Virus record (IMG/VR): IMGVR_UViG_3300009128_000006
Span: 26,157 to 90,156 of that record
Length of the DNA: 64,000 nucleotides
Reading direction: 5' to 3' (one strand)
Origin: a virus
Lineage: Duplodnaviria > Caudoviricetes
Position 1 is the first letter of the stretch. Each line of letters begins with the position of its first letter. The position numbers and the translations under genes are program-made. Positions 26,083 through 64,000 of this stretch are shown piece by piece. The notes under the pieces were generated by a model. It made no database searches and was not told the origin of the DNA. It worked only from the letters and a program-made list of their open reading frames with translations.

Positions 26083-26772
26083 ATGGCGTACGTTCTCATC
26101 AATGCCGCTCGCGACCGGACTCTGGAGAAGCGCAGGAAGCGTCATCCGGGTCGGTTGTGTCGGCGGCCCTTGATCGACGGAGAGAAGCTCGTCGGCAATC
26201 GCAGGTACACGAAGCAGGAGATCTCTCCGCGATGTGCGCTGGAGATCGACCGACACGTGCGCTGGGGCAACGTCCGCTTCCGTCAGGCCTTCGGCATGTG
26301 CAACGACGTCGACATCCGCAAGCTCTTCCCGGAGGCGTTTACCGTCCCCGAGCCCGGTCCTTCCCTCGGTGAGGCAGTGCTCAAGACGGTGAAGGAGCAG
26401 TTGGTCTCTGAGCCCGCCCCGGTAGTGTCAGTCACCCGGTGCGATCCCGAGGACAACCTGCCCCTCGACACAGGTGCCCTGGAAGATGGGGTCACAATCC
26501 TTGGGCCTGATGATGAGGATGGCTTGAAAGAGGCTGCATCCTTGTTCGAGCCTGAGATGGAGGAAGAGCCTTCCGATCCTGTGGAGGAAGAGTTCCTCAT
26601 GTCTCTCCGCAACGAGGATCTTCGAGGCGTGTTGTCCATCCTCGGCGGCAAGGGCAAGGGGAAGAGCAAGGCCACCCTCGTCTCTGACATTCGAACGGCC
26701 TATGCTTCGTCTGAGCTCGATCCTGTGCAACGGCGCCGGGCCGAGGAACGCCTGGTCGAACTGGAGAACTGA
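26083..26772 (+). CDS. Hypothetical protein with C-terminal Rho-N/SAP-like helical motif
   Basis: LRNEDLRGVLSILGGKGKGKSKATLVSDI; TATAGT 7 nt before ATG. Confidence 0.5.
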   Translation: MAYVLINAARDRTLEKRRKRHPGRLCRRPLIDGEKLVGNRRYTKQEISPRCALEIDRHVRWGNVRFRQAFGMCNDVDIRKLFPEAFTVPEPGPSLGEAVLKTVKEQLVSEPAPVVSVTRCDPEDNLPLDTGALEDGVTILGPDDEDGLKEAASLFEPEMEEEPSDPVEEEFLMSLRNEDLRGVLSILGGKGKGKSKATLVSDIRTAYASSELDPVQRRRAEERLVELEN

Positions 26773-31459: not shown

Positions 31460-34400
31460 ATGGCTTCGGAGAACAGGCCAGGCGTCGAGGTCGAGCAGAA
31501 GATCGCGTCGACTTCCACCGTAGTCGCGGCTCCCGATCTGGTGCCGCTGGTGGTTGGCGTTTGCCATCAGATCATCGAGGCCCTGGACAGCGACGGTGCT
31601 CTGAACTCCGACGCGAAGTACTCTGCCGAGCAGTACAACCAGGCGTCTCTCGCGATCCCGCAGGCAGACCTGCCGGACCCACGCGACAACATCGACGAGC
31701 TTGAAGTCGATGAGGGCGAGGTCAACGGGTACCTCTACTTCGGCGGTACTCTGACGAAGCTCGATCGCGGGAGCAACGGCACAACGGGCTCTGCATTCCT
31801 CAAGCTCGCCAATCTCTCGACGCGTGCGGCCATCCGAAGTACGCTCGACATCTCGGCCGGGCTCACCTTCTCCTCTACGGGTGATGCCTTCAACTTCTAC
31901 CTCGACGTGGTGAACACGAGTTCGTCCACCGCAGTGCCTGTCGAGGTGGAGCTCTCAGGCTCGATGACCGCGGACGCGATCGTGGACGCGATCAACACCG
32001 CTGCCGGTGCCGACGTCGCAGAGCTCATCGACGATACCTACCTCCAGATCTCCTCGCAGACCTACGGGGCAGTGTCCTCGGTCACCCTCCAGGCCAACAA
32101 CGCTGGAACTCTCATCCTCTTCCAGACGGCAACCTTCACCAACACGGTGGAGTACCGTGTCGAGGGCTCAGGCTTCGTCGGCCAGGACGACGAGGACGGG
32201 GACACCTACACTCCTTGGATCGAGTTCTTCCGCGGCGGCTACTTCGAGGACGGTGCCGACACGACCTTCCCGGTCACAGGAACTACGACGCCCAGCACCA
32301 CTGATGAGGTGTGGGGTGGTCTCATCGACCAGGATGACACGTTCTCCCCGGCCAAGGCAGCTGCCTTGGTCTACACCGGAACGAGTGCGGATGTGCCGCT
32401 GCAGGCCGCCACGACTTCTGTGCCGGGCGACCAGCTCTGGGCCAGTGGTGTCCAGGTCGGTGATGGAGAGATCATCAAGGTCGAGCAGTCCCGCTTCAAG
32501 ATCGGGAAGCTCTCCACGACCAACTCCACCTTCGATGATGATGGTGTGCCGACGGTGCGTGTCTACGACACCATCGAGGTGGCGACCTTGCTACACGGTA
32601 CTCCGTGGGCTCCGAAGTACGCCTACTTCGTAGCGGATGGTCTGGTCTTCGGAGAGATCACTCCCGAAGGTGAGGCCGCATCGGTCACAGGCTCGGAGAC
32701 GGGTCTGGACGAGCGGAGCGCTTATGTGGTGTCGGGTTCCGACATCTCCTTCCCCCTTTCTGCCGGAGGCCTCACGCTCGAGTTTGCCGTGACGGAGGAT
32801 GGAGAGGCTGGCGATACCGTCACCTACACGTTCACCTCTACGTTCACTGACATCGGGGAGCTGGTTTCAGAGCTGGGCGATGCGGACGAGTTCGACCAGT
32901 TCACGGTGTCGGCTCACGGCGACTTCCGCCTGGTTCTTCAGACCACGAAGACCGGTGCCGATCAGGCCATCTCCATCAAGAGCACAGGTTCTGCCAACGG
33001 TGTCCTGGGCTTCTCGACAACGGCTGCAACGGAAGATGATGGCACGGATGTCGAGTTCGCCACACAGGCGACGGTGACGGGTGCTCGCATCTCCCTTCCG
33101 CTCGAGAGCGAGGGCAGCTCGGCTCTGGACATGGTGGTCACGGACTCGAAGGGGACTCATACCCTGAGCGCGACGGGCGTGGACCTCACCGCAGGTACGC
33201 TCGGAGCCCTCATCGCATCCATCTCGGGTGCCTTGGGCGGAGACGGTACGAGCACCGTTACCGACAACGGCATCCCAGTAGGCACGCTGTCTACTTCCGG
33301 AGATGGCGATGCGTCGGGGACCATCACCTTCACCACCACCGAGGGTGGTGCCAACGTGAGCGTCGAGATTCAGGCCATCGACGGCGATGATGGCTTCCGC
33401 CACTGCGGCTTCTTCGATGATGGCGGTGGCGAGTGGGCCCAGGTGGATGGCTCGGCCCAGGTCTTCCCTCTCGACCTCACAGGGGGCGGGGGCGGGACCG
33501 CTCTGGACTTCGAGTATCACTACGACATCGGAGGTGCGGGAAGCACGTCTCTGGGTGGGACTGTCAACTTCACGGCCGTGGATGTCGACGATCTGGCGGA
33601 GAAGCTCAACGCAGAGGCGGCCATCACCGACTACTCCGGTGAGCGGGTTGTGTGGTTCGTGGCCAACGCGGATGACTCCATCTCGATCCGTACGGTTGAA
33701 GGCGGGACCAACATCCGCATCGAGATCAATACCGGTACTCCGGTTGGTCTCACGAACGGTGCCACGGACGATGGTACGGCGGCTGACAACGCGGACGCGG
33801 ACGGCGCGGACGGCATCAAGGGAACGACTCTCGGGTTCACCCTCGATGACAATCCCTACGTCTACGAGATCATCTTCTCCAGCAACTCGCTGGCCGATGC
33901 CATCGACGACATCAACGAGCTGGTGGACGGCTCCGGCGATGTGGCCTCCGAGACCTCCAGCGCACTCACTCTGACCTCCCTGCTCGAGGGTGCGGCTTCG
34001 GCCATCACCATCGAAGAGGTCGATGGAAGCGACACGCTCGGTCTCGAAGATGCTTCGGACACCGGTGCTGGACGTCCGAACCCGGACTTCTACCAGGACG
34101 ACTCGGGTGTGGCGTACTTCGGCCCGAACATCCTGCGAAGCACGAGTACAGGGATCCCGTACTCCCTGGAGTCTGCTCTCGCCGACATCTACATCGCGTA
34201 CGAGGCTCTCCGTCTGGATGTGACTCCGTCGGCGAGCTCCCCGGCTGCTCTCGAGTTCGACAACACCTCGGACATCGAAGCCGCCATCGGTCCCATCTCG
34301 ATCAAGAACCCCCTCGCACTGGGCATGTTCTTGGCGAAGGCCAACACTCCCTCCAACTCGGTCACTGGTTTCGGTGTCGACGAGGCGACGGCTGCGGCTC

Positions 34401-56526: not shown

Positions 56527-57036
56527 TTACCAAAGGCACTGGAAGAAGCCGAGGAGCACAACACGGCGGCCTGTGTGCGGAGTCACAGAGTGTTTTACGG
56601 GCCCATAGCCTTCAGGATTCGAAGGGCTGCTCCCGTACACTACGGCAGAGCGGTAGTGGCGAATCGGAGAGGTATCCAGCCTGGATTCGCCATGTGTCCT
56701 GAAGATTCCGCCCTCGAAGTCATCCGGATGAGAGAGAAGTACACTCACAGACATTCCGCACCACGGCATGTGATGCGTTCCGTCTTCCTTGTACCCATCA
56801 TAGTGTGGCTCGTGCCCTCGAGGTTGGAGCTCAAAGCGCGCGTATGACGGAGCCTCCCACTGCACTTCGCAAGGCCAACCGGATCCTATGAGGATCCGGT
56901 TGAAGACTGTACGGACCAGAGGAGAACAAGCCGCAGGGGGCTGCGAAATCTCCTGTCTGAGATGGTTTCCCTCTTCCGCCTCATGGAGAAGTGCCTGAGC
57001 CTCCTCCGCAGAGACGACGTTTGGGACTACCACCAC
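56527..57036 (-). CDS. 2OG-Fe(II) oxygenase
   Basis: HYD, FEGG, HSVTP...R motifs. Confidence 0.8.
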   Translation of the reverse strand: MVVVPNVVSAEEAQALLHEAEEGNHLRQEISQPPAACSPLVRTVFNRILIGSGWPCEVQWEAPSYARFELQPRGHEPHYDGYKEDGTHHMPWCGMSVSVLLSHPDDFEGGIFRTHGESRLDTSPIRHYRSAVVYGSSPSNPEGYGPVKHSVTPHTGRRVVLLGFFQCLW

Positions 57037-57824
57037 TTGATGTAGCCGAGGAGGCTGCTCGCGTTGCGGTACGAGGCCTTCACGCGGTCACTCTCGTTCC
57101 CGCCGATGCACAGGTGCTTCCCACCTTCGGTGTTCACCACGAGACCCACATGCCGTGCTGTGGAGGCGGAGCTCTTGTCACTGCCGCTCCCTCCACGACC
57201 CATGATGAAGATCGCACCCGGAGGGCACGCCTGACCTGCAGGGATCCAGCGACCGGTCTTCTTCGCCCACAGCTCCATCTGGTAGCCGGAGCCCTGGAAC
57301 TTGCCGTCGAAGGGCAGTGACGAAGCTCCCCACTCCAGTCCCTTGCTTTGCCGGACGGCCTGCGCCGCGAGCATGGCACACCAGGGGTAGTACGCGGCCG
57401 GGACGATGCCCCAGTACTGCGCGTAGCCGTCCACGATGTGTGCGATTTCCGGACCGCAGTTGTTCCCGGACTCCTTCGCGCCGAGCTGCTTCGCAGCCCA
57501 TATGAGCGCGAGCTTCGGCCACTCCTCGCAGATCACCGGGATCTCGTCGAGGAGCCATGAAACCTGCGCGCTCTGCTCTTCGTGCTTCGAAGGCGAGATG
57601 CTCTTCGTGGCGGAGTCCGGCTCTTCGATCGCCTTCCAGGTGTTCGTCCCGACGATGCCGTCAGGAGTGAGGCCTTCGGCCGCCTGAAGGGTGATGACAG
57701 CGTCCTCGGTGCCTGCTCCGAAGATGCCGTCCGCGTCGATGTTGAAGCCGCGCAGGTTGATGAGCTCCTGCAAGAGCGTGACGGAGTTGCCACGGGAACC
57801 ACGACGAAGAAGGGGATGGGACAT
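57027..57824 (-). CDS. Endolysin: peptidoglycan-binding domain plus CHAP domain
   Basis: LRRGSRG...DGIFG...DGIVGTNTW; PWCA, HVGLV, GGNES. Confidence 0.88.
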   Translation of the reverse strand: MSHPLLRRGSRGNSVTLLQELINLRGFNIDADGIFGAGTEDAVITLQAAEGLTPDGIVGTNTWKAIEEPDSATKSISPSKHEEQSAQVSWLLDEIPVICEEWPKLALIWAAKQLGAKESGNNCGPEIAHIVDGYAQYWGIVPAAYYPWCAMLAAQAVRQSKGLEWGASSLPFDGKFQGSGYQMELWAKKTGRWIPAGQACPPGAIFIMGRGGSGSDKSSASTARHVGLVVNTEGGKHLCIGGNESDRVKASYRNASSLLGYIKWW

Positions 57825-57870
57825 AGGGGTGCTCCAGGGAAGGGGCTCATCCTATCCCAGCGGAGCTGCT

Positions 57871-58005
57871 GTGAAGAGTACGAAGGTCTGGAGGTATCGG
57901 AACTGTCCTGCCCCCGTGGAGAGGCTCAACTACGTCGTGAGTGCTCTTTTTGTGGGTATCTTCGTCTTTATGCTTGTCATCTCTACAGCGGCGTGGTTAG
58001 TGTAG
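57871..58005 (+). CDS. Small single-TM protein
   Basis: GGAG RBS, hydrophobic C-terminus. Confidence 0.35.
   Translation: MKSTKVWRYRNCPAPVERLNYVVSALFVGIFVFMLVISTAAWLV
57974..58003 (+). promoter_or_regulatory. Sigma70-like promoter for Ser/Tyr leader
   Basis: TTGTCA-N18-TAGTGT, 6 nt before ATG 58010. Confidence 0.6.
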
Positions 58006-58009
58006 GGAC

Positions 58010-58078
58010 ATGACTCGCAAGTGTGCCATCTCCTCTTCAAGTAGCTCGTATTTTACGGGCCCGGAGGGGTGTGCCTGA
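58010..58078 (+). CDS. Ser/Tyr attenuator leader peptide MTRKCAISSSSSSYFTGPEGCA
   Basis: TCC TCT TCA AGT AGC TCG TAT at 58031-58051. Confidence 0.8.
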   Translation: MTRKCAISSSSSSYFTGPEGCA

Positions 58079-58105
58079 TGCGTTAGAACCATCATCGGTC
58101 CACGA

Positions 58106-58150
58106 AAGAACCCCTCCCCGGCCCATTGTCGCGGAGGGGTTCTTGCATTC
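58106..58150 (+). terminator. Attenuator terminator hairpin before tRNA-Tyr/Ser block
   Basis: AAGAACCCCTCC / GGAGGGGTTCTT; 5' arm also complementary to GGAGGGGT at 58063-58070. Confidence 0.8.
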
Positions 58151-58236
58151 GGGGATCGAGTACAGTAGCTCGGGACTACTGGCGGGCCTGTAAAGTCCGT
58201 GCCTTAGGGATAGTGGTTCGAATCCACCGATCCCCA
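58151..58236 (+). tRNA. tRNA-Tyr(GTA)
   Basis: Acceptor GGGGATC/GATCCCC, anticodon loop CTGTAAA, GGTTCGAATCC. Confidence 0.9.
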
Positions 58237-58257
58237 CCTATTTCTTTGTCTTCTATT

Positions 58258-58340
58258 GGAGAGGTAACTCTGCGAGGCAGGGCTACGCTTGGAAAGCGTA
58301 TGGCGGTTTCGGCCGCGCGGGGCGGTACCGCACTTCTCCT
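58258..58340 (+). tRNA. tRNA-Ser(GGA), non-canonical T loop
   Basis: TACGC-TTGGAAA-GCGTA, long variable arm, acceptor GGAGAGG/CTTCTCC. Confidence 0.75.
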
Positions 58341-58351
58341 CTTCTTCACAT

Positions 58352-58427
58352 GGTCGTGTAGCTCAGTCTGGTAGAGCAGAGGGGTCGCCCCCAGAGACGC
58401 AGGTTCAAATCCTCGCTCGTTCCACCA
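58352..58427 (+). pseudogene. Degenerate tRNA (anticodon unresolvable)
   Basis: TAGCTCAGTCTGGTAGAGC D arm, GGTTCAAATCC T arm, CCA end; damaged anticodon and acceptor stems. Confidence 0.6.
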
Positions 58428-58433
58428 CATCTT

Positions 58434-58516
58434 GGAGAATGAACCGTCTGAGTGGACGGCCTCGTTTCGAAAACGAGCGGTGCGGCAAGCATTCGGGGCG
58501 GGACCGACGTTCTCCT
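58434..58516 (+). tRNA. tRNA-Ser(CGA), non-canonical T loop
   Basis: CTCGT-TTCGAAA-ACGAG, long variable arm, acceptor GGAGAAT/GTTCTCC. Confidence 0.75.
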
Positions 58517-58525
58517 CTACTTCTT

Positions 58526-58616
58526 GGAGAGTGAAATAGGTGCGGTTTCCCTTAGCGCGGTTGCTACCTGCGTCGGGTCATGTGGCCCGCTGGTTCGACT
58601 CCAGCACTCTCCTCCA
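58526..58616 (+). tRNA. tRNA-Ser(GCT)
   Basis: CGCGG-TTGCTAC-CTGCG, long variable arm, GGTTCGACTCC, CCA. Confidence 0.85.
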
Positions 58617-58629
58617 TCTCTACCACTTA

Positions 58630-58716
58630 GGAGAGGCCCGCGCAGAGGGGCGCATCCGGCTTTGAATACCGGCGGCAGGGTCACACCTGAGGTTTCGAGT
58701 ACCTGTCTCTCCTCCA
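58630..58716 (+). tRNA. tRNA-Ser(TGA)
   Basis: Anticodon loop TTTGAAT in CCGG stem, long variable arm, CCA. Confidence 0.75.
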
Positions 58717-58977
58717 CTTGTCCCAGATGCTCGCCGTGAGCTTCGAGGCATGGAACCTGTACCAGCCCTTCTTCCGGCCCTGAACCACAACCAGCAGACG
58801 ATACTTCGTGCTCCTCTTCCGATACCCAGGCTGCCGCATCACTGCGGCAGTAAGGAATCCCCGTTTTAGGGCCCATTCATGAAGGTTTAGCACCACGTAC
58901 CAGCTCTTTTTGCATGGGTACTCAACCCGCCCCTTCCGAGGGAAGTGGGCGATGGCGCGTAGCAGATCGGCTTCCAT
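58681..58977 (-). CDS. Hypothetical basic protein antisense within tRNA array
   Basis: Lower-GC ORF with TCATAAG box at 59058 upstream. Confidence 0.4.
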   Translation of the reverse strand: MEADLLRAIAHFPRKGRVEYPCKKSWYVVLNLHEWALKRGFLTAAVMRQPGYRKRSTKYRLLVVVQGRKKGWYRFHASKLTASIWDKWRRDRYSKPQV

Positions 58978-59062
58978 TCCAGCTGTGAGCATGAGAGCCC
59001 CTATGAAAAGCAACAGCATGAAGTCTTCGTAGCGATCATCACTACGCAGACGATTTTCTTAT

Positions 59063-59135
59063 GACGACAATCACAGGAGTGGACCTGCTGGGTCTGCAAA
59101 ACCCGGGGAGTGGAGTTCAAGTCTCCCTGTCGTCT
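59063..59135 (+). tRNA. tRNA-Cys(GCA)
   Basis: Acceptor GACGACA/TGTCGTC, loop CTGCAAA, U73. Confidence 0.8.
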
Positions 59136-59154
59136 TCTCTGTTACACTGTGAAT

Positions 59155-59364
59155 GTGAGTACTCAGCTGATCATGACGGCGATCCTACTGGTCCTGGCCA
59201 GTTTCGGCTTCGCCGTGTCCGGGTACTCCCTCGATGACAGCGCCTTGTCCCAGAAAGGCTTCGCTGTCATCGCGACTGATCGCCGGCCCGGCGATCAGGT
59301 GACCGCCAACGAGCGGAATGCGACTGCGCCACAGACTCGTCCCCTGCAGGAAGGCTTCCCGTAG
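59155..59364 (+). CDS. Leader-like peptide with N-terminal signal/TM segment
   Basis: TG-T-TACACT extended -10, 6 nt, GTG; ends QEGFP before hairpin. Confidence 0.5.
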   Translation: MSTQLIMTAILLVLASFGFAVSGYSLDDSALSQKGFAVIATDRRPGDQVTANERNATAPQTRPLQEGFP

Positions 59365-59387
59365 GGGACTTCTCAGTTCTGGGAACC

Positions 59388-59428
59388 CGAGAGGCCTCCG
59401 TCACCAAAGCGGGAGGCCTCTCGCGTTT
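59388..59428 (+). terminator. Terminator hairpin of attenuator-like architecture
   Basis: CGAGAGGCCTCC / GGAGGCCTCTCG followed by CGTTT. Confidence 0.75.
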
Positions 59429-59513
59429 GAGCTCTCGTTATGCTTCACACATGGGCGGTATTCGGCGAGACCCAGGACAGGAGCGCCCCGATGGTCCGGC
59501 GTATACTCCTCGT

Positions 59514-59813
59514 ATGGCCCCGAAGCGCCTACTACTGCACGCCGTGTTCATCCTCATCCAGGATGACGACGTTCGGAGGACCACTGCGGCCATCTTCTTC
59601 TTCTACCTGGGCCTGATGGTGATCTTCCTGGCCCTTGTCCCCATACCAGAAGAGAGCGCGAAGACCATTCATCTCATCATCGGCGGCCTGGTCGGCGGAG
59701 GCATCGGCCCTGCGATTAGAGCCCTACTGGACAAGGGAGACGGACAGAAGCCGAGCCTGGAAGCTCACTTCTCTGGCGAAGGGAACGGGAGCACAGCACC
59801 TCGAGGCCCTTGA
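59514..59813 (+). CDS. Two-TM membrane protein (holin-like)
   Basis: TATACT 6 nt before ATG; two hydrophobic helices around PIPEE. Confidence 0.5.
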   Translation: MAPKRLLLHAVFILIQDDDVRRTTAAIFFFYLGLMVIFLALVPIPEESAKTIHLIIGGLVGGGIGPAIRALLDKGDGQKPSLEAHFSGEGNGSTAPRGP

Positions 59814-59968
59814 ACTCCGAGACTCCTTCGAAGCTCTCGCACTTCCTTGTCTGTACGCGGCCAAAACGAGCCGTCCGGCATGAGCTTGTACTTGCGATGG
59901 AAGGCCCTCCACCGAGGCAGTAGGTTGAAGAACGGGAACACGTTCGAGAGTGGGATCACCTTGCTCAT
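59765..59968 (-). CDS. Hypothetical small protein
   Basis: GGAG RBS. Confidence 0.4.
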   Translation of the reverse strand: MSKVIPLSNVFPFFNLLPRWRAFHRKYKLMPDGSFWPRTDKEVRELRRSLGVQGPRGAVLPFPSPEK

Positions 59969-59972
59969 ATGC

Positions 59973-60001
59973 TTGACTCCCTCTCCACAGGGTACTACAC
60001 C
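59973..60001 (+). promoter_or_regulatory. Sigma70-like promoter for Leu leader
   Basis: TTGACT-N17-TACACC, 6 nt before ATG 60008. Confidence 0.65.
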
Positions 60002-60007
60002 TAAGAC

Positions 60008-60073
60008 ATGACCTTCGTGATGCGCGCGCTATCCTCCTTGCTTCTTCTGAAGCCCGGGGAGGGGTGCGTGTAG
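60008..60073 (+). CDS. Leu attenuator leader peptide MTFVMRALSSLLLLKPGEGCV
   Basis: CTA, then TTG CTT CTT CTG at 60038-60049. Confidence 0.8.
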   Translation: MTFVMRALSSLLLLKPGEGCV

Positions 60074-60096
60074 GGTCATCAACCTACGACACCGTC

Positions 60097-60137
60097 GGAA
60101 GCCTCCCCAGCGAAAGCTCGGGAGGTTTCTTGCGTTT
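60097..60137 (+). terminator. Attenuator terminator hairpin before tRNA-Leu block
   Basis: GGAAGCCTCCC..AGC-GAAA-GCT..GGGAGGTTTCT then TGCGTTT; CCTCCCC also pairs with GGGGAGG at 60056-60062. Confidence 0.8.
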
Positions 60138-60139
60138 AT

Positions 60140-60224
60140 GGGGAGGTAGCCGAAATGGATAGGCACCAGGTTCAGGCCCTGGGGGGCTCAGTCTCCGATG
60201 CGGGTTCGAGTCCCGTTCTCCCTA
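60140..60224 (+). tRNA. tRNA-Leu(CAG)
   Basis: CCAGG-TTCAGGC-CCTGG, long variable arm, GGTTCGAGTCC. Confidence 0.88.
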
Positions 60225-60232
60225 CTCTTTTT

Positions 60233-60316
60233 GCGGAAGTGGCGAAACAGGCAGCCGCGCGGGCTTGAGGGGCTCGTGGTCTTCGGACCGTGGGGGTTCA
60301 AATCCCCCCTTCCGTA
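60233..60316 (+). tRNA. tRNA-Leu(GAG)
   Basis: CGGGC-TTGAGGG-GCTCG, variable arm with TTCG loop, A73. Confidence 0.92.
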
Positions 60317-60323
60317 CTACTTT

Positions 60324-60451
60324 GAGGAGATGGGCAAACGGTAAAGCCACCAGTCGGTATGGGCTGGGGACATCCCGAAACCGCCGTCGTCCGTCCGGAA
60401 GGGAGGCGGAGCACGGTGGACGGATTGGAGGTTCGACTCCTCCTCTCCTCA
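60324..60451 (+). ncRNA. tRNA-like RNA with oversized variable region and aberrant anticodon loop
   Basis: Perfect acceptor GAGGAGA/TCTCCTC, D arm, GGAGG-TTCGACT-CCTCC T arm; 128 nt. Confidence 0.6.
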
Positions 60452-60458
60452 TTATTCT

Positions 60459-60533
60459 GCCCCGGTACGCCAGTTGGTAGTAGCGACCGCACTTAAAATG
60501 CGGTGGATGGAGGTTCGAATCCTCTTCGGGGTA
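60459..60533 (+). tRNA. tRNA-Leu(TAA) with short variable loop
   Basis: CCGCA-CTTAAAA-TGCGG, GGTTCGAATCC. Confidence 0.8.
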
Positions 60534-60537
60534 TCGC

Positions 60538-60566
60538 TTGACCTTCACGTGTTGAAGGACTACTAC
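60538..60566 (+). promoter_or_regulatory. Sigma70-like promoter for Gly/Thr leader
   Basis: TTGACC-N17-TACTAC, 6 nt before ATG 60573. Confidence 0.55.
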
Positions 60567-60572
60567 TTCTAC

Positions 60573-60683
60573 ATGCGTTCCTTCCTGGCCATCACCGGTA
60601 CAACCGGTACCACCGTCCTCCCGCCTGCGTTCGGCGGTCGAGGACTCATGCCAGGACGAACGCAGCTCATCAGCACAGTCTGA
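60573..60683 (+). CDS. Gly/Thr-rich leader peptide MRSFLAITGTTGTTVLPPAFGGRGLMPGRTQLISTV
   Basis: Same promoter geometry as other leaders; precedes tRNA-Gly genes. Confidence 0.6.
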   Translation: MRSFLAITGTTGTTVLPPAFGGRGLMPGRTQLISTV

Positions 60684-60719
60684 TCTGTTCGTAGCCCGCT
60701 TGTCCTGGCTCATACCTAA

Positions 60720-60774
60720 GCGGTAGTAGCTCAGGCACTTAGAGCGTCGGCTTGCCAAGTCGAAGGCCCCGGGT
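60720..60774 (+). pseudogene. 5' part of split tRNA-Gly(GCC)
   Basis: GCGGTAG acceptor strand, loop TTGCCAA, stops after T-stem CCGGGT. Confidence 0.85.
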
Positions 60775-60779
60775 GTTTT

Positions 60780-60851
60780 GCGTACATAGCTCAACGGTAG
60801 AGCATTTGTCTGCCAGGCAAAGGGCTGCGGGTTCGAATCCCGCTGTGCGCT
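60780..60851 (+). tRNA. tRNA-Gly(GCC)
   Basis: TTTGT-CTGCCAG-GCAAA, GGGTTCGAATCCC, U73. Confidence 0.88.
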
Positions 60852-60893
60852 TCACCTCTTGTGCGGTAGGGGATACTTGGTTATCTACCGCAT

Positions 60894-61415
60894 ATGGAAG
60901 AACAGAGAATATGCAGGTCGTGCGGAGATACAAAGCCCGTCTCAGAGATGATTCCCATCAAAAGACGAGGAAAGGTTTACTATAGGAGGCAGTGCCGTTC
61001 GTGTGAGAGCAAACGATGCGCTGTACACCACGCGACGCCAAAATCTAAGGCGGCTTACAAGGCCCGTTCCGACATGCTCAAGGTAGAGCGCGCTGCTGGT
61101 CTGAATGTCGAGCGTTGGATTTACGAAGATGCTCGACGTTCAGACCGAAAGCGCGATCTGGAGAACGACCTGACGAAGGCATTTATCCGAGAGCAGATCG
61201 AGAAAGGGTGTAGCTATTGTGGAGAGGAGAGTATCCGTATGACTCTTGACCGGATCGATAACAGCATCGGGCACTTACAATCAAACTGCGTGCCTGCCTG
61301 TATTCGCTGCAACTGTACCAGAAGGCACATGCCTTACGAGGCATGGCTGATTGTGGCCCCGGCCATGCGGGAGGCGCGGTTGGCAGGTCTCTTTGGGGAT
61401 TGGACTGGAAGATAG
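60894..61415 (+). CDS. HNH-family endonuclease
   Basis: CSYCG...TLDRIDNSIGHLQSNCVPACIRCN. Confidence 0.85.
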   Translation: MEEQRICRSCGDTKPVSEMIPIKRRGKVYYRRQCRSCESKRCAVHHATPKSKAAYKARSDMLKVERAAGLNVERWIYEDARRSDRKRDLENDLTKAFIREQIEKGCSYCGEESIRMTLDRIDNSIGHLQSNCVPACIRCNCTRRHMPYEAWLIVAPAMREARLAGLFGDWTGR

Positions 61416-61432
61416 TCCCGGCTACCGCACCA
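61414..61432 (+). pseudogene. 3' part of split tRNA-Gly
   Basis: AGT-CCCGG-CTACCGC-ACCA complements T stem and acceptor of 60720-60774. Confidence 0.85.
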
Positions 61433-61436
61433 TTTT

Positions 61437-61496
61437 GGCGTCATAGCTCAGTCCTGATAAGGCTGAGGTCGTTGGTTCAACTCCAACCGGTATCAC
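61437..61496 (+). pseudogene. Deleted/chimeric tRNA with Ile(GAT) 3' half
   Basis: TAGCTCAGT joined directly to CCTGATAAGG; acceptor strands do not pair. Confidence 0.6.
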
Positions 61497-61503
61497 TCTC
61501 TAC

Positions 61504-61578
61504 ACTGCCGTGGATCAATGGTAGATCGCCAGGCCCTCACCCTGGAGACCGCGGGTTCGAACCCCGTCGGCAGTACCA
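61504..61578 (+). tRNA. tRNA-Glu(CTC)
   Basis: CCAGG-CCCTCAC-CCTGG, acceptor ACTGCCG/CGGCAGT, ACCA. Confidence 0.8.
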
Positions 61579-61583
61579 CCTAC

Positions 61584-61671
61584 AACGCCGAATGCAAAGT
61601 GGATCGCGCGGCTGGGTTTTCATTCCAGTGCCCGTAAGGGGTAGGGGGTTCGAGTCCCCTCGGCGTTACCA
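61584..61671 (+). tRNA. tRNA-Glu(TTC) with long variable arm
   Basis: CTGGG-TTTTCAT-TCCAG, acceptor AACGCCG/CGGCGTT, ACCA. Confidence 0.65.
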
Positions 61672-61680
61672 ATCCTATAT

Positions 61681-61730
61681 GTTGGCCGTAGCTCAGTCCG
61701 GTAAGAGCGCCAGGTTGTGGCCCTGGAGGT
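61681..61730 (+). pseudogene. 5' part of split tRNA-His(GTG)
   Basis: CCAGG-TTGTGGC-CCTGG, no T arm follows. Confidence 0.8.
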
Positions 61731-61763
61731 TTAAGAGAAATCTCGACAAGCACCCGTGAATAT

Positions 61764-61835
61764 GGTACCTTTGGTGTAGCGGTAGCACGCCAGATTGTGG
61801 TTCTGGAGGCTCCGGTTCAAACCCGGGATGGTACC
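61764..61835 (+). tRNA. tRNA-His(GTG)
   Basis: CCAGA-TTGTGGT-TCTGG; G-1:C73. Confidence 0.85.
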
Positions 61836-61841
61836 CTTTTC

Positions 61842-62453
61842 ATGCCCCAGAAGAAGTCTGTTCCTAAGGTCTGTGAGGTGTGCGGAGACGTATTTCTTGT
61901 GCGGCCGGTGGACGCGAGACGGCATCCCTGCCGGTTCTGTAGTCGCTCCTGTAAAGGCAAGGCCCAGCCTCCTATAAGCAGAGGATTGACCGGAGAGGAT
62001 AATCCGAACTGGAAAGGGGGGCTGACCTTCAGCAAGTCTACAGGGTACTGGAGAGTCTTACAGCCCACACATCAGCGAGCAGACCATCTGGGGTACGTCA
62101 AGCGAGCGGACTTGGTACTGGAAGAGAAACTTGGGCGGCCTTTACTTCCCAATGAGATTGCGCACCACGTCAACGAAGATCGGGCAGATGACTCCCCAGA
62201 GAACCTGGAGTGCATGGACTATGGCGAGCACCGGCTGATGCACATCCAGCAGAGGGCAGAGCGTGCTCGGCAGTTAAACCCTCCGAAGCCGAAACAACCA
62301 GATCACCCCAGCAACCGCCGCTATACGTGGCCCTCGGATTCTGAGCTCCTCGAGATGAGGAAGACGATGAGCCTTCGACAGATTGCGGCCATAGTCGGCT
62401 GCGGCCATAAGACCGTAGATAGACGTCTCTCTCGTATTTCCTCCTCGAGATAA
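61842..62453 (+). CDS. HNH endonuclease with N-terminal Zn ribbon and C-terminal HTH
   Basis: CEVCG..FCSRSC, NPNWKGG, HHVNEDRADDSPENL. Confidence 0.88.
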   Translation: MPQKKSVPKVCEVCGDVFLVRPVDARRHPCRFCSRSCKGKAQPPISRGLTGEDNPNWKGGLTFSKSTGYWRVLQPTHQRADHLGYVKRADLVLEEKLGRPLLPNEIAHHVNEDRADDSPENLECMDYGEHRLMHIQQRAERARQLNPPKPKQPDHPSNRRYTWPSDSELLEMRKTMSLRQIAAIVGCGHKTVDRRLSRISSSR

Positions 62454-62477
62454 TCCCGTCGCTCACCTACCTTTCTC

Positions 62478-62515
62478 GGGAGAGTGGTGTAACTGGCAGC
62501 ACGTGAGGCTCTTCA
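62478..62515 (+). pseudogene. 5' half of split tRNA (identity uncertain)
   Basis: GGGAGAG-TG-GTGTAACTGGCAGCAC-G-TGAGG, ends in anticodon loop. Confidence 0.75.
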
Positions 62516-62516
62516 T

Positions 62517-62590
62517 GGACGGGTAGCTCAGCAGGCCAGAGCGTCCGGCTTTGGACCGGAAGGTGTGCGGTTCGAGTCCGCCCCCGTCTT
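62517..62590 (+). tRNA. tRNA-Gln(TTG)
   Basis: TCCGG-CTTTGGA-CCGGA, GGTTCGAGTCC. Confidence 0.85.
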
Positions 62591-62637
62591 CTCAAACCAT
62601 GCAGCCGTGTTATAGCCATACAAAAGGGTATGGTTCG

Positions 62638-63183
62638 ATGTCTGAGTCTCAAAGGAAGAGAGACGTAGTTCGCCGGCTAAGAACGGAAGGCAAGAGCTAC
62701 AAGGAGATTGCCGAAGCAACAGGGCTCACCAAGTCGACTATTGCATACCATGCAAGAAGATTGGGAATACCAGCCCAACCCCAGCGCCGTGATTACCCCT
62801 GGAATGAAATCCAGAAGATGTATGAGAGTGGGGCAACTTATCGGGAGTGCGCGCAGAAGTACGGGTTCTCCCGTACTGCATGGGACACGGCAAAACGTCG
62901 AGGGCTTATACACCCACGGGAGAAGAGGAGGCCTGTTGAACTCTACTTCTCTTGGAGGAAGAAGCTGTCGTCAACGGCAAAGAAGCGCCTGTTCGATGAG
63001 GGTATGTTGAAAAAGGAGTGCTCTATATGCGGACAAGGACCTGTATGGGCTGGGAAGCCTCTCGTTATACAGATTGATCACATCAATGGAAACCCCGCGG
63101 ACAATCGTCGTGAGAATCTACGGCCGGTGTGCCCGAACTGTCATTCTCAGACCCCGACGTTTTGCGGGCGAAACATCACCTAA
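62638..63183 (+). CDS. HTH-HNH endonuclease
   Basis: GKSYKEIAEATGLTKSTIAYH; CSICG...QIDHINGNPADNRRENLRPVCPNCHSQT. Confidence 0.9.
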   Translation: MSESQRKRDVVRRLRTEGKSYKEIAEATGLTKSTIAYHARRLGIPAQPQRRDYPWNEIQKMYESGATYRECAQKYGFSRTAWDTAKRRGLIHPREKRRPVELYFSWRKKLSSTAKKRLFDEGMLKKECSICGQGPVWAGKPLVIQIDHINGNPADNRRENLRPVCPNCHSQTPTFCGRNIT

Positions 63184-63212
63184 GGAGACTGGTTCGAACC
63201 CGGCCTCTCCTT
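63176..63212 (+). pseudogene. 3' half of split tRNA
   Basis: CCTAA..CTGGTTCGAACCCGG..CTCTCCT pairs with GGGAGAG at 62478. Confidence 0.75.
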
Positions 63213-63434
63213 CTACTTGAACGCAGCTGTGAGTTCGAGCACGACGGCACTGATGAACCAGTTGTCGCGCTGAAGACCGATCTTCCCGTCACTGCAGCGG
63301 ACCAGATGCCGCTTCCCCTCTTCGGAGAGGAAGTCCAGCTTCAAGCCGAGCTCCTTCTCTGCCTCTTCGACACTCACCGGCACCATCTTGTCGAAGGGCG
63401 GCTTCCGCTTCACTTCAGGAGCCTGTCCTGCCAT
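63213..63434 (-). CDS. Hypothetical protein
   Basis: Short ORF in minus-strand run. Confidence 0.45.
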   Translation of the reverse strand: MAGQAPEVKRKPPFDKMVPVSVEEAEKELGLKLDFLSEEGKRHLVRCSDGKIGLQRDNWFISAVVLELTAAFK

Positions 63435-63619
63435 CCCGGCTGAATCTCATCCTCGGGGTTCCTCGCCGCACGCTCCCTGAAGCGCTTCAGGTCTGAGTCC
63501 GTGAGATGGAAGGTCTCGAAGAGTCCATCAGGCATGACAACGAGGACAGAGTGGTACCGAGCAGGAGAGCCGAACGTGCGCTCCTTGTTCTCCGTCGTGA
63601 CCAGCTTTCCGAGCTTCAT
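63410..63619 (-). CDS. Hypothetical protein
   Basis: GAGG RBS, ATGA overlap. Confidence 0.5.
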   Translation of the reverse strand: MKLGKLVTTENKERTFGSPARYHSVLVVMPDGLFETFHLTDSDLKRFRERAARNPEDEIQPGWQDRLLK

Positions 63620-63990
63620 CGTTCCTCTGCCATGCCTCCCGTAGTGGTTCCGCCTGTTGATCCCGTGCCGGAGTCTTCTTGCAAGGACTCCAACGGCTCA
63701 GGCAGCTCAGTCACGACCACAGGGGGCTGGCTCCATCGCAAGTAGGCGGCGTAGACGGCAGCCCTGCAGACGTCGTTCTCGACGGCATCAGCGATGCTCT
63801 CGAGCGGCAGGTGTGATGGCCTGGTCGGGTCTGCCTCGTAGACGTCCATGGATGGCTGCTCCCAGTTGGGAGGCGCGTAGCCTTGATCTGCCAGGCGCAT
63901 GTCCCGTAGAACGGCTTTCACGGCCCCGAGGTCGTCCTTTACTTGGAGGACATCCTTGGCCACCTTCTCGGTGCGTACTTGGAACTGCAT
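63616..63990 (-). CDS. Hypothetical protein
   Basis: GAGGAGG RBS. Confidence 0.55.
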   Translation of the reverse strand: MQFQVRTEKVAKDVLQVKDDLGAVKAVLRDMRLADQGYAPPNWEQPSMDVYEADPTRPSHLPLESIADAVENDVCRAAVYAAYLRWSQPPVVVTELPEPLESLQEDSGTGSTGGTTTGGMAEER

Positions 63991-64000
63991 GGCCTCCTCG

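Follow-up and report, generated by a model that had tools for sequence, protein, structure and literature searches.

Intact tRNAs and HNH-type endonuclease genes inside split tRNA genes of a phage tRNA array

A split tRNA-Gly gene in the tRNA array

The window analysed here is a stretch of 64,000 nucleotides that forms the final 64 kb of a 90,156-nt phage contig (IMG/VR record IMGVR_UViG_3300009128_000006, positions 26,157 to 90,156). Its subject is the tRNA cluster at the contig end, where ARAGORN called 10 tRNAs at 58526-62591 and where all 12 RF00005 matches of the 90-kb contig were located (Rfam). The array holds three HNH-type endonuclease genes. Each of the three is preceded by an intact tRNA gene, and around each such pair lie the fragments of a second tRNA gene for the same amino acid (Gly, His and Gln). 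The broken gene is called A and the intact, carried gene B in what follows, and all parts of the three cassettes are on the plus strand.

In the Gly cassette, the 5' piece of a tRNA-Gly(GCC) gene (A; 60720-60774; 16.1 bits alone in Rfam) runs from position 1 to position 54 with all stems intact: acceptor 5' strand (GCGGTAG), TA, D arm (GCTC-AGGCACTTA-GAGC), G, anticodon arm with the anticodon GCC (TCGGC-TTGCCAA-GTCGA), variable loop (AGGCC), T-stem 5' strand (CCGGG) and T54. There the gene is interrupted by 641 nt, consisting of the 5-nt filler GTTTT (60775-60779, as read in the sequence), an intact tRNA-Gly(GCC) (B; 60780-60851; called by ARAGORN, 69 bits in Rfam), a 42-nt spacer and an open reading frame (ORF) of 173 codons. 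This ORF, HNH#1 (60894-61415), encodes an HNH-fold nuclease-like protein of 173 aa. Its stop codon TAG (61413-61415) directly abuts T61416, which is followed by CCCGG, CTACCGC and ACCA (61417-61432). The first two of these pair with the T-stem and acceptor 5' strands of the 5' piece in 12 of 12 bp (5 bp + 7 bp), and ACCA is the discriminator plus CCA. The 3' piece as a whole spans 61414-61432, including a possible T-loop remnant AGT that overlaps the stop codon; judging from the presumed original loop sequence, the T loop of A would have lost ~3 nt. An earlier note on this DNA, made from the letters alone, had described a tRNA-Gly gene split in the T loop, a divergent intact tRNA-Gly(GCC) within the insert (A and B are identical in 50 of 65 columns) and a nuclease stop codon at the T-loop remnant, and our analysis bore out all of this.

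When the Gly pieces were joined by coordinates, ARAGORN recognised a tRNA-Gly(gcc) in 28 of 80 junction combinations, and a blind join-scan of 60000-64000 recovered the same pair with 43 junction variants. In control scans, 16 kb of window sequence outside the array yielded 0, 5, 0 and 0 pairs; one of the five was a single-variant pair, and the other four lay around a tRNA-like stretch at 32430-32506. Within the array, 51 of 55 pairs were discarded because they combined a reused intact tRNA with a chance 7-mer. The 12-mer CCCGGCTACCGC occurred exactly once in the window, and with at most one mismatch it had 3 matches versus 0.41 expected, a count that none of 100 shuffles reached. Furthermore, the 3' Gly junction was covered by a contig from another sequencing run (X3 record 4, 61249-61491).

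The insert carries no sign of an intron. Neither Intron_gpI nor any other ribozyme matched at E<=1 in 57000-64000 (Rfam), in agreement with the word 'intronless' of the earlier note. An integrase island was not indicated for the Gly cassette either: its insert held only the tRNA and the HNH ORF, with no integrase, and no direct repeat of the tRNA 3' end flanked it. Directly before the ATG of HNH#1, a hairpin is predicted by folding (60861-60893; -18.2 kcal/mol, z -3.17, matched by 2 of 200 shuffles). The acceptor-stem 7-mers of the split gene recur as its two arms, GCGGTAG at 60863-69 and CTACCGC at 60885-91. The hairpin may be a decayed A-type minihelix, a regulatory mimic of the target or a coincidence; hairpins masking the translation start have been described for segB, mobE and I-TevI-III (PMC2988022).

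HNH#1 gave no match in Pfam at E<=0.1, but it matched PHROG 1035, named 'endonuclease VII' (E 4.9e-22), and several HNH PHROGs. Among 16 aligned members of its family the pattern CxxC...MTLDRIDN...H...N...CxxCN is invariant, including the two zinc motifs with the zinc-site cysteines C106, C109, C136 and C139 and, in CxxCN, N140 at the metal-binding helix position. The AlphaFold model (mean pLDDT 93.2) has strands at 116-120 and 132-136 and a helix at 137-143, which together with the CxxC...CxxC zinc site is the beta-beta-alpha-metal fold. The best Foldseek match of the model was PacI (3ldy, E 1.3e-4), and Gme HNH was also found, while the profile of the alignment matched the Gme HNH nicking enzyme (4h9d, E 4.2e-4) and also the HNH domain of Cas9. 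A tblastn search against GenBank phages yielded 40 records with 31-34% identity; their annotation is either hypothetical protein or HNH.

The His and Gln cassettes and the rest of the array

The His cassette spans 61681-62467. It opens with the 5' fragment of a tRNA-His(GTG) gene (A; 61681-61727), from G-1 to position ~44, which was detected by a partial Rfam match (61688-61747, model 7-64, 25.7 bits) and by contigs from runs X3, X5 and X6, which match 61683-61727 and then pass into the 3' portion of an intact tRNA-His. The intact tRNA-His(GTG) B (61765-61836; ARAGORN; 55.5 bits in Rfam) is followed by HNH#2 (61842-62453), a protein of 203 aa with an HNH_3-like domain and a C-terminal helix-turn-helix (HTH), ending with TAA at 62451-62453. 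HNH#2 matched PHROG 20891 (E 2.6e-19) and reached 21.8 bits with Pfam HNH_3, which is under the cut-off of 24.8; it keeps the canonical His (AHHVN). Right after its stop stands the 3' fragment of A (62452-62467), read as AAT, CCCGT, CGCTCAC and C, which by eye is identical to the 3' end of the intact tRNA-His of other runs at 14 of 17 positions. The end of this cassette was wholly covered by an X5 contig (61868-62760). Join-scan pairs of the 61683/62392 type, which also looked like His, were discarded for their wrong register.

The Gln cassette (62478-63212) was the second split pair of the blind join-scan (62478, 63212; 167 junction variants). Positions 1-35 of tRNA-Gln(CTG) A (62478-62512; join-scan and other-run contigs) are followed by the filler TCAT (62513-62516) and by an intact tRNA-Gln(TTG) B (62517-62591; ARAGORN; 56.8 bits in Rfam). 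HNH#3 comes next (62638-63183). Counted from the ATG at 62638 the protein has 181 aa (another ATG occurs upstream at 62599), and it combines an HTH at the N-terminus with an HNH domain at the C-terminus. It matched Pfam HNH_3 (25.6 bits, cut-off 24.8), Sigma70_r4_2 and PHROG 10822 (E 6.3e-29), and it keeps the canonical His (IDHING). Its stop TAA (63181-63183) sits inside the former anticodon-stem 3' strand (CCTAA) of A, whose 3' piece (63179-63212) comprises this strand, the variable loop, the T arm and the acceptor 3' strand. Contigs in three of four runs (X3, X4 and X6) join 62512 to 63183 through 8 other letters and thus represent an intact tRNA with the anticodon loop CTCTGGC, i.e. Gln(CTG); their depth was 8-15 versus ~3 for the phage. 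This intact gene of another genome is identical to the window pieces over 29 + 30 nt (3' part 63184-63213), and the identity of the Gln A gene was taken from these contigs because its own anticodon is interrupted.

The three cassettes share further traits. In each module tRNA B ends 5-47 nt upstream of the nuclease start codon, the carried and broken tRNAs of the other two cassettes are identical in 43 of 61 and 44 of 69 columns, and a filler is present at all three 5' junctions (5, 37 and 4 nt). All three ORFs matched HNH families only and none was of the GIY-YIG type; they lie inside a tRNA cluster and outside any self-splicing intron or intein, as free-standing endonuclease genes do. In all three cassettes the broken and the carried tRNA agree in identity, which is suggestive but not decisive.

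The remainder of the array is also rich in tRNA-like sequence. Adjacent tRNAs for the same amino acid occur elsewhere in it (Leu-Leu and Glu-Glu; ARAGORN). A tRNA-like gene at 60325-60450 has good acceptor and T arms (GAGGAGA ... GGAGG TTCGACT CCTCC TCTCCTC), an 8-nt anticodon loop and ~57 nt at the position of the variable arm; as it stands neither ARAGORN nor Rfam called it, and after trimming ARAGORN read a 4-base 'gtat'. At 61438-61500 a chimeric tRNA combines the first 12-15 nt of one tRNA (GGCGTCATAGCT) with the anticodon arm and T arm of a tRNA-Ile(GAT), and its acceptor strand is non-matching; an intact tRNA-Ile in contigs of other runs matches 61451-61485 of it. Three degenerate tRNA-like stretches at the array start (58165-58240, 58352-58423 and 58640-58716) were not called by ARAGORN, and one of them reached 23.8 bits in Rfam. 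Outside the array, ARAGORN accepted 32430-32506 as a tRNA-Leu(gag) once a distant acceptor strand was supplied, though this stretch, in a coding-looking region, is probably a chance tRNA-like fold.

The phage itself has a G+C of ~60% in the window, where genes for a topoisomerase II large subunit and an endolysin are located, and its contig has an estimated completeness of ~49% (CheckV). Its sequence was present in marine and seawater metagenome runs of two studies, and no RNA run was among those listed. A query with the topoisomerase II large subunit found no relatives of the phage in IMG/VR, blastn of 57000-64000 against GenBank phages gave only chance-like matches of 70-85 nt, and six small ORFs around the array had no PHROG match.

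Relatives of the nucleases in other phages

Relatives of HNH#1 were found at 22 IMG/VR loci with 38-57% identity, several of them on contigs of 300-536 kb. At 17 of these 22 loci a same-strand tRNA of varied identity was present within ~450 nt, usually ending ~40 nt before the ORF. With HNH#2 and HNH#3 as queries, 62 loci were fetched, 46 of them with tRNAs, and most of the nuclease genes again lay between intact tRNAs. A wider survey for split tRNAs covered 145 ORFs in 64 loci. About 20 matches of the kind 'intact tRNA plus distant acceptor strand' were dropped from it, as they occurred at the chance rate, with one locus (L009) kept through a separate test; two further candidates (L020 and L021) were inspected as split cases and rejected.

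The survey revealed one arrangement like that of the window. On an AT-rich 143-kb contig of an unrelated phage (L031), a 5' fragment from acceptor to anticodon loop is followed by an intact tRNA-Arg(TCT), an ORF of the HNH#3 family and, right after its stop, a 3' fragment with the anticodon-stem 3' strand, T arm and acceptor strand. The junction position, 38/39, is that of the Gln case in the window. A partial case is L009, where an intact tRNA-Pro(GGG) and an HNH#1-family ORF are followed, immediately 3' of the stop, by CAAAT CCTCT CACGCCG A. This T-loop-to-acceptor fragment agrees with the tail of the upstream tRNA at 15 of 17 positions, a value reached by 1 of 14,550 control pairs, and the junction is again in the T loop.

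Other loci showed different arrangements. In L053 (1067-1849), ~700 nt are inserted in the anticodon loop of a tRNA-Leu(TAA). This insert contains a weak Intron_gpI match (1093-1277, 29.2 bits, E 7e-4, below the gathering score of 50; Rfam) and an ORF of the HNH#3 family (1246-1692), and it looks like the known intron solution. At the best relative of HNH#3 (L026), a class II tRNA stands 160 nt upstream of the gene and no split tRNA was seen. In L007 (2864-3551), two tRNA 3' ends sharing GCGGTCCACCA flank an HNH#1-family ORF, which overlaps a Ser-type fragment in that its last codons extend across the variable arm and the anticodon arm (CGA); the 117-nt tRNA-like stretch upstream is not a tRNA by Rfam. 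A tRNA with the anticodon CTA (a suppressor, labelled 'Pyl' by ARAGORN) was also observed at 3600-3675 of L011/L012, in an array beside an HNH#1-family gene.

Origin of the cassettes and comparison with known systems

We think it fairly probable that the tRNA cluster was colonised by three unrelated free-standing HNH-type homing endonuclease genes, with modules of a tRNA and a nuclease gene copied into breaks of cognate tRNA genes by a SegB-like logic. No ribozyme, integrase or flanking direct repeat was found, and one insertion per cassette is the simplest account. The nuclease would cut A-type alleles in a loop, namely in the T loop of the Gly and His genes and in the anticodon loop of the Gln gene, and the break would be repaired by copying in the module of tRNA B and nuclease, with the loss of ~3 nt and the addition of a few filler bases. 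Such a loss together with filler has the look of end-joining or microhomology rather than of long homology. The carried tRNA B would compensate for the broken A, and as its loop and stem sequence differs it would presumably escape cutting. The view of the earlier note that the insert supplies a replacement tRNA gained strength from the matching identity in all three cassettes and from the arrangement in L031.

The retained halves of A might then serve as short homology arms. If so, a filled allele could home into any genome bearing tRNA A, whatever its flanks, and the intact Gln gene, which matches the window only within the tRNA, allows the halves to be seen as portable arms of this kind. It is conceivable, and we offer it tentatively, that portable homing cassettes exist as a third kind beside introns and inteins, with a target tRNA gene common to many otherwise unrelated phages and the halves of this ~75-bp gene as their sole arms; they would make non-syntenic jumps, carry a cut-resistant tRNA for the same amino acid and drive the turnover and diversification of phage tRNAs.

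Several observations weigh against colonisation by tRNA-nuclease modules. First, 15 of the 17 array-borne relatives of HNH#1 have intact tRNAs on both sides, and members of this family are therefore not as a rule inserted into a gene. The identity of the broken tRNA in L031 is unreadable. The agreement of identity in 3/3 cassettes is weaker evidence than (1/20)^3 would imply, since same-amino-acid tRNAs are often adjacent. The His halves pair in only 5 of 7 acceptor bp, which indicates that this pair has begun to decay, and 37 nt of filler separate the 5' fragment from B. The 5' Gly junction was not bridged with at least 31 nt on both sides among the contig matches listed; X5 record 20 (60533-60782) reaches only 8 nt past it, short of the 31-nt rule. 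In the alignment of the HNH#1 family, Arg120 (motif LDRID) stands opposite the DH of Gme HNH and Cas9 in all 16 members, in place of the canonical general-base His, and the activity of HNH#1 is therefore unproven. The nuclease gene of the earlier note was upheld as to fold by profile and Foldseek, and its canonical catalytic His is absent. However, PacI, in which the catalytic His is likewise missing, relies on a residue of the omega loop, between the strands (PMC5714182), so an active HNH#1 with a relocated catalytic residue is plausible; the candidates are two invariant residues, Y108 and the inter-strand loop residue H127.

The search for uninterrupted genes, which the earlier note had called for, gave a divided answer that adds to these objections. 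Neither IMG/VR, the JGI metagenome contigs and the GTDB genomes, searched with exact words that miss diverged alleles, nor the contigs of the four runs contained an uninterrupted Gly(A). A 28-mer and a 20-mer of the 5' piece had 0 exact matches in IMG/VR, the 20-mer had 0 in GTDB genomes, and its sole match among the JGI metagenome contigs (L025) was a chance one, without a tRNA and in a bacterial-looking repeat region. No contig skipping 60775-61415 occurred in the 4 runs, although contigs drop rare variants. Intact homologues do exist for Gln and His in co-occurring genomes, but they are not strict empty sites because their flanks are unlike the window: the intact Gln contigs differ beyond 62484 and 63213, and the joint side is 29 nt, a size that often comes from other organisms. 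As exact words, a His 37-mer had 0 matches in IMG/VR and a Gln 29-mer had 0 in IMG/VR and 0 in GTDB genomes. Finally, a near-identical copy of any module in a second context was not found, the best relative of HNH#1 having 57% identity.

Among the other explanations, the one that survives best is that the splits are one-off scars, in which A and B would have been alleles or neighbours at a single tRNA position and nuclease-induced breaks were misrepaired, by illegitimate recombination or a SegB-like segmental duplication and deletion, leaving dead fragments; the module would then neither be mobile as a unit nor have the halves as arms. We regard this as possible but rather doubtful. The filler at every 5' junction, the decay of the His fragments, the lack of a second copy of any module and the generally scrambled state of the array, with its chimera at 61438-61500 and its degenerate tRNA-like stretches, are all consistent with it. 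SegB, moreover, makes repeat units of a tRNA and a homing endonuclease gene by microhomology (PMC13096335). The sequence after the 5' Gly break (TTTTGCGTACATAGCTCA) and that after the 3' piece (TTTTGGCGTCATAGCTCA) are also 78% alike over 18 nt; this likeness, however, is largely the TAGCTCA universal to tRNA 5' parts and has no echo at His or Gln, and a tandem A-TTTT-B duplication as the origin of the Gly cassette, which rests on it, was given low weight. Scars would hardly be expected to give the same tight architecture three times with three unrelated nucleases, and again in L031, with the nuclease stop codon at the junction in 4 of 4 cases. Besides, the Gly halves are undecayed (12/12 bp, stems intact), and an intact gene elsewhere agrees with the Gln halves at every position over 29 + 30 nt.

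It is very improbable that the split tRNAs still work, as split tRNA genes of the archaeal type do, through pairing of the halves of one precursor transcript (12 bp) into a nicked or trans-assembled tRNA or through removal of the insert at the RNA level. The perfect complementarity of the Gly halves, their undecayed stems and the ACCA encoded by the 3' piece would suit such a function, whereas no ribozyme was found, ~3 nt of the T loop are missing with a remnant that is not a canonical T loop, the Gln anticodon itself is interrupted and the His halves mispair. The A halves appear dispensable, because every cassette contains an intact tRNA for that amino acid. Equally hard to credit is a metagenome contig made chimeric at tRNA repeats: tRNA arrays do share conserved words, the Logan contigs are short and break near tRNA borders, and the 5' Gly junction lacks a bridge of the length given above among the contig matches listed, yet the junctions have no common sequence for an assembler to thread, the ORFs end in frame exactly at them, the region recurs at 100% identity in contigs from two studies (X3 and X5 cover the Gly 3' junction and the His end), and the architecture is also seen in the independent contigs L031 and L009.

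To our knowledge, homing endonuclease genes are thought to persist in useful or essential genes only within introns or inteins or beside their target. The cassettes represent a further arrangement, in which the target is physically broken and a complete substitute gene accompanies the nuclease; three sites of this array have it, as does another phage. Should the module prove mobile, it would explain the shuffling of tRNA genes and variants between unrelated large phages and the litter of fragments in tRNA arrays, and it would offer a route for quick exchange of tRNA alleles, which is relevant to escape from host defences that cut tRNAs. The junctions are also exact candidate cleavage sites for three putative nucleases, of which one belongs to an HNH lineage lacking the canonical His. 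In a full-text literature search, with subscription journals and paper supplements outside its scope, a tRNA gene split by a cassette of tRNA and endonuclease was not found. The rarity suggested by the earlier note must be toned down, as units of tRNA and segB and targeting of the T stem-loop were already known; the window differs in the retention of both halves together with a carried tRNA of the same identity.

Among characterised enzymes, PacI and Gme HNH (3ldy, 4h9d) are zinc-bound HNH proteins and the closest structural and profile matches of HNH#1. PacI, however, is a restriction enzyme using Tyr, while H127 and Y108 are predicted candidates in the HNH#1 family. With regard to the insertion sites, group I introns with endonuclease ORFs occur in the anticodon loop of tRNA-Leu(UAA) and in the T loop of transfer-messenger RNA (tmRNA) (PMC11915505), and thus share with the cassettes the anticodon-loop or T-loop site and the carried homing endonuclease gene. 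Unlike them, the window inserts have no ribozyme, and compensation would be by replacement and not by splicing. Endonuclease genes that split protein genes have also been described, for example mobE in nrdA of Aeromonas phage Aeh1, mobA in T4 gene 39/60 and seg43(25) (PMC2988022), as have 'fractured genes' with split inteins (PMC2677866). As in the window, an intronless endonuclease gene (mobE, mobA or seg43) is inserted in an important gene and leaves two pieces. However, the protein pieces in these systems cooperate or are joined by split inteins, whereas the tRNA pieces look dispensable and the insert carries a complete second gene.

The closest known system is SegB of phages T4 and T6. The 27-bp site of SegB includes the conserved T stem-loop motif of tRNAs, and the tRNA genes around segB spread along with it (PMC2330249). 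Cleavage by SegB falls within tRNA genes and drives the amplification of a 718-bp unit of tRNA-Tyr and segB, at whose borders the tRNA 5' end and the segB 3' end share microhomology (PMC13096335). Like the genes in the window, segB is a free-standing nuclease gene in a phage tRNA cluster, and a hairpin is described at its translation start. It travels with neighbouring tRNA genes, displacing the tRNA markers of the recipient, and in the T6 amplification the block of tRNA and nuclease acts as a unit. SegB differs in being a GIY-YIG enzyme, compared with the HNH-fold ORFs of the window, and in its position in an intergenic spacer (tRNA-Arg/tRNA-Ile; PMC2988022), whereas in the window the module lies inside the target gene, both halves of which are kept, and carries a tRNA of the same identity.

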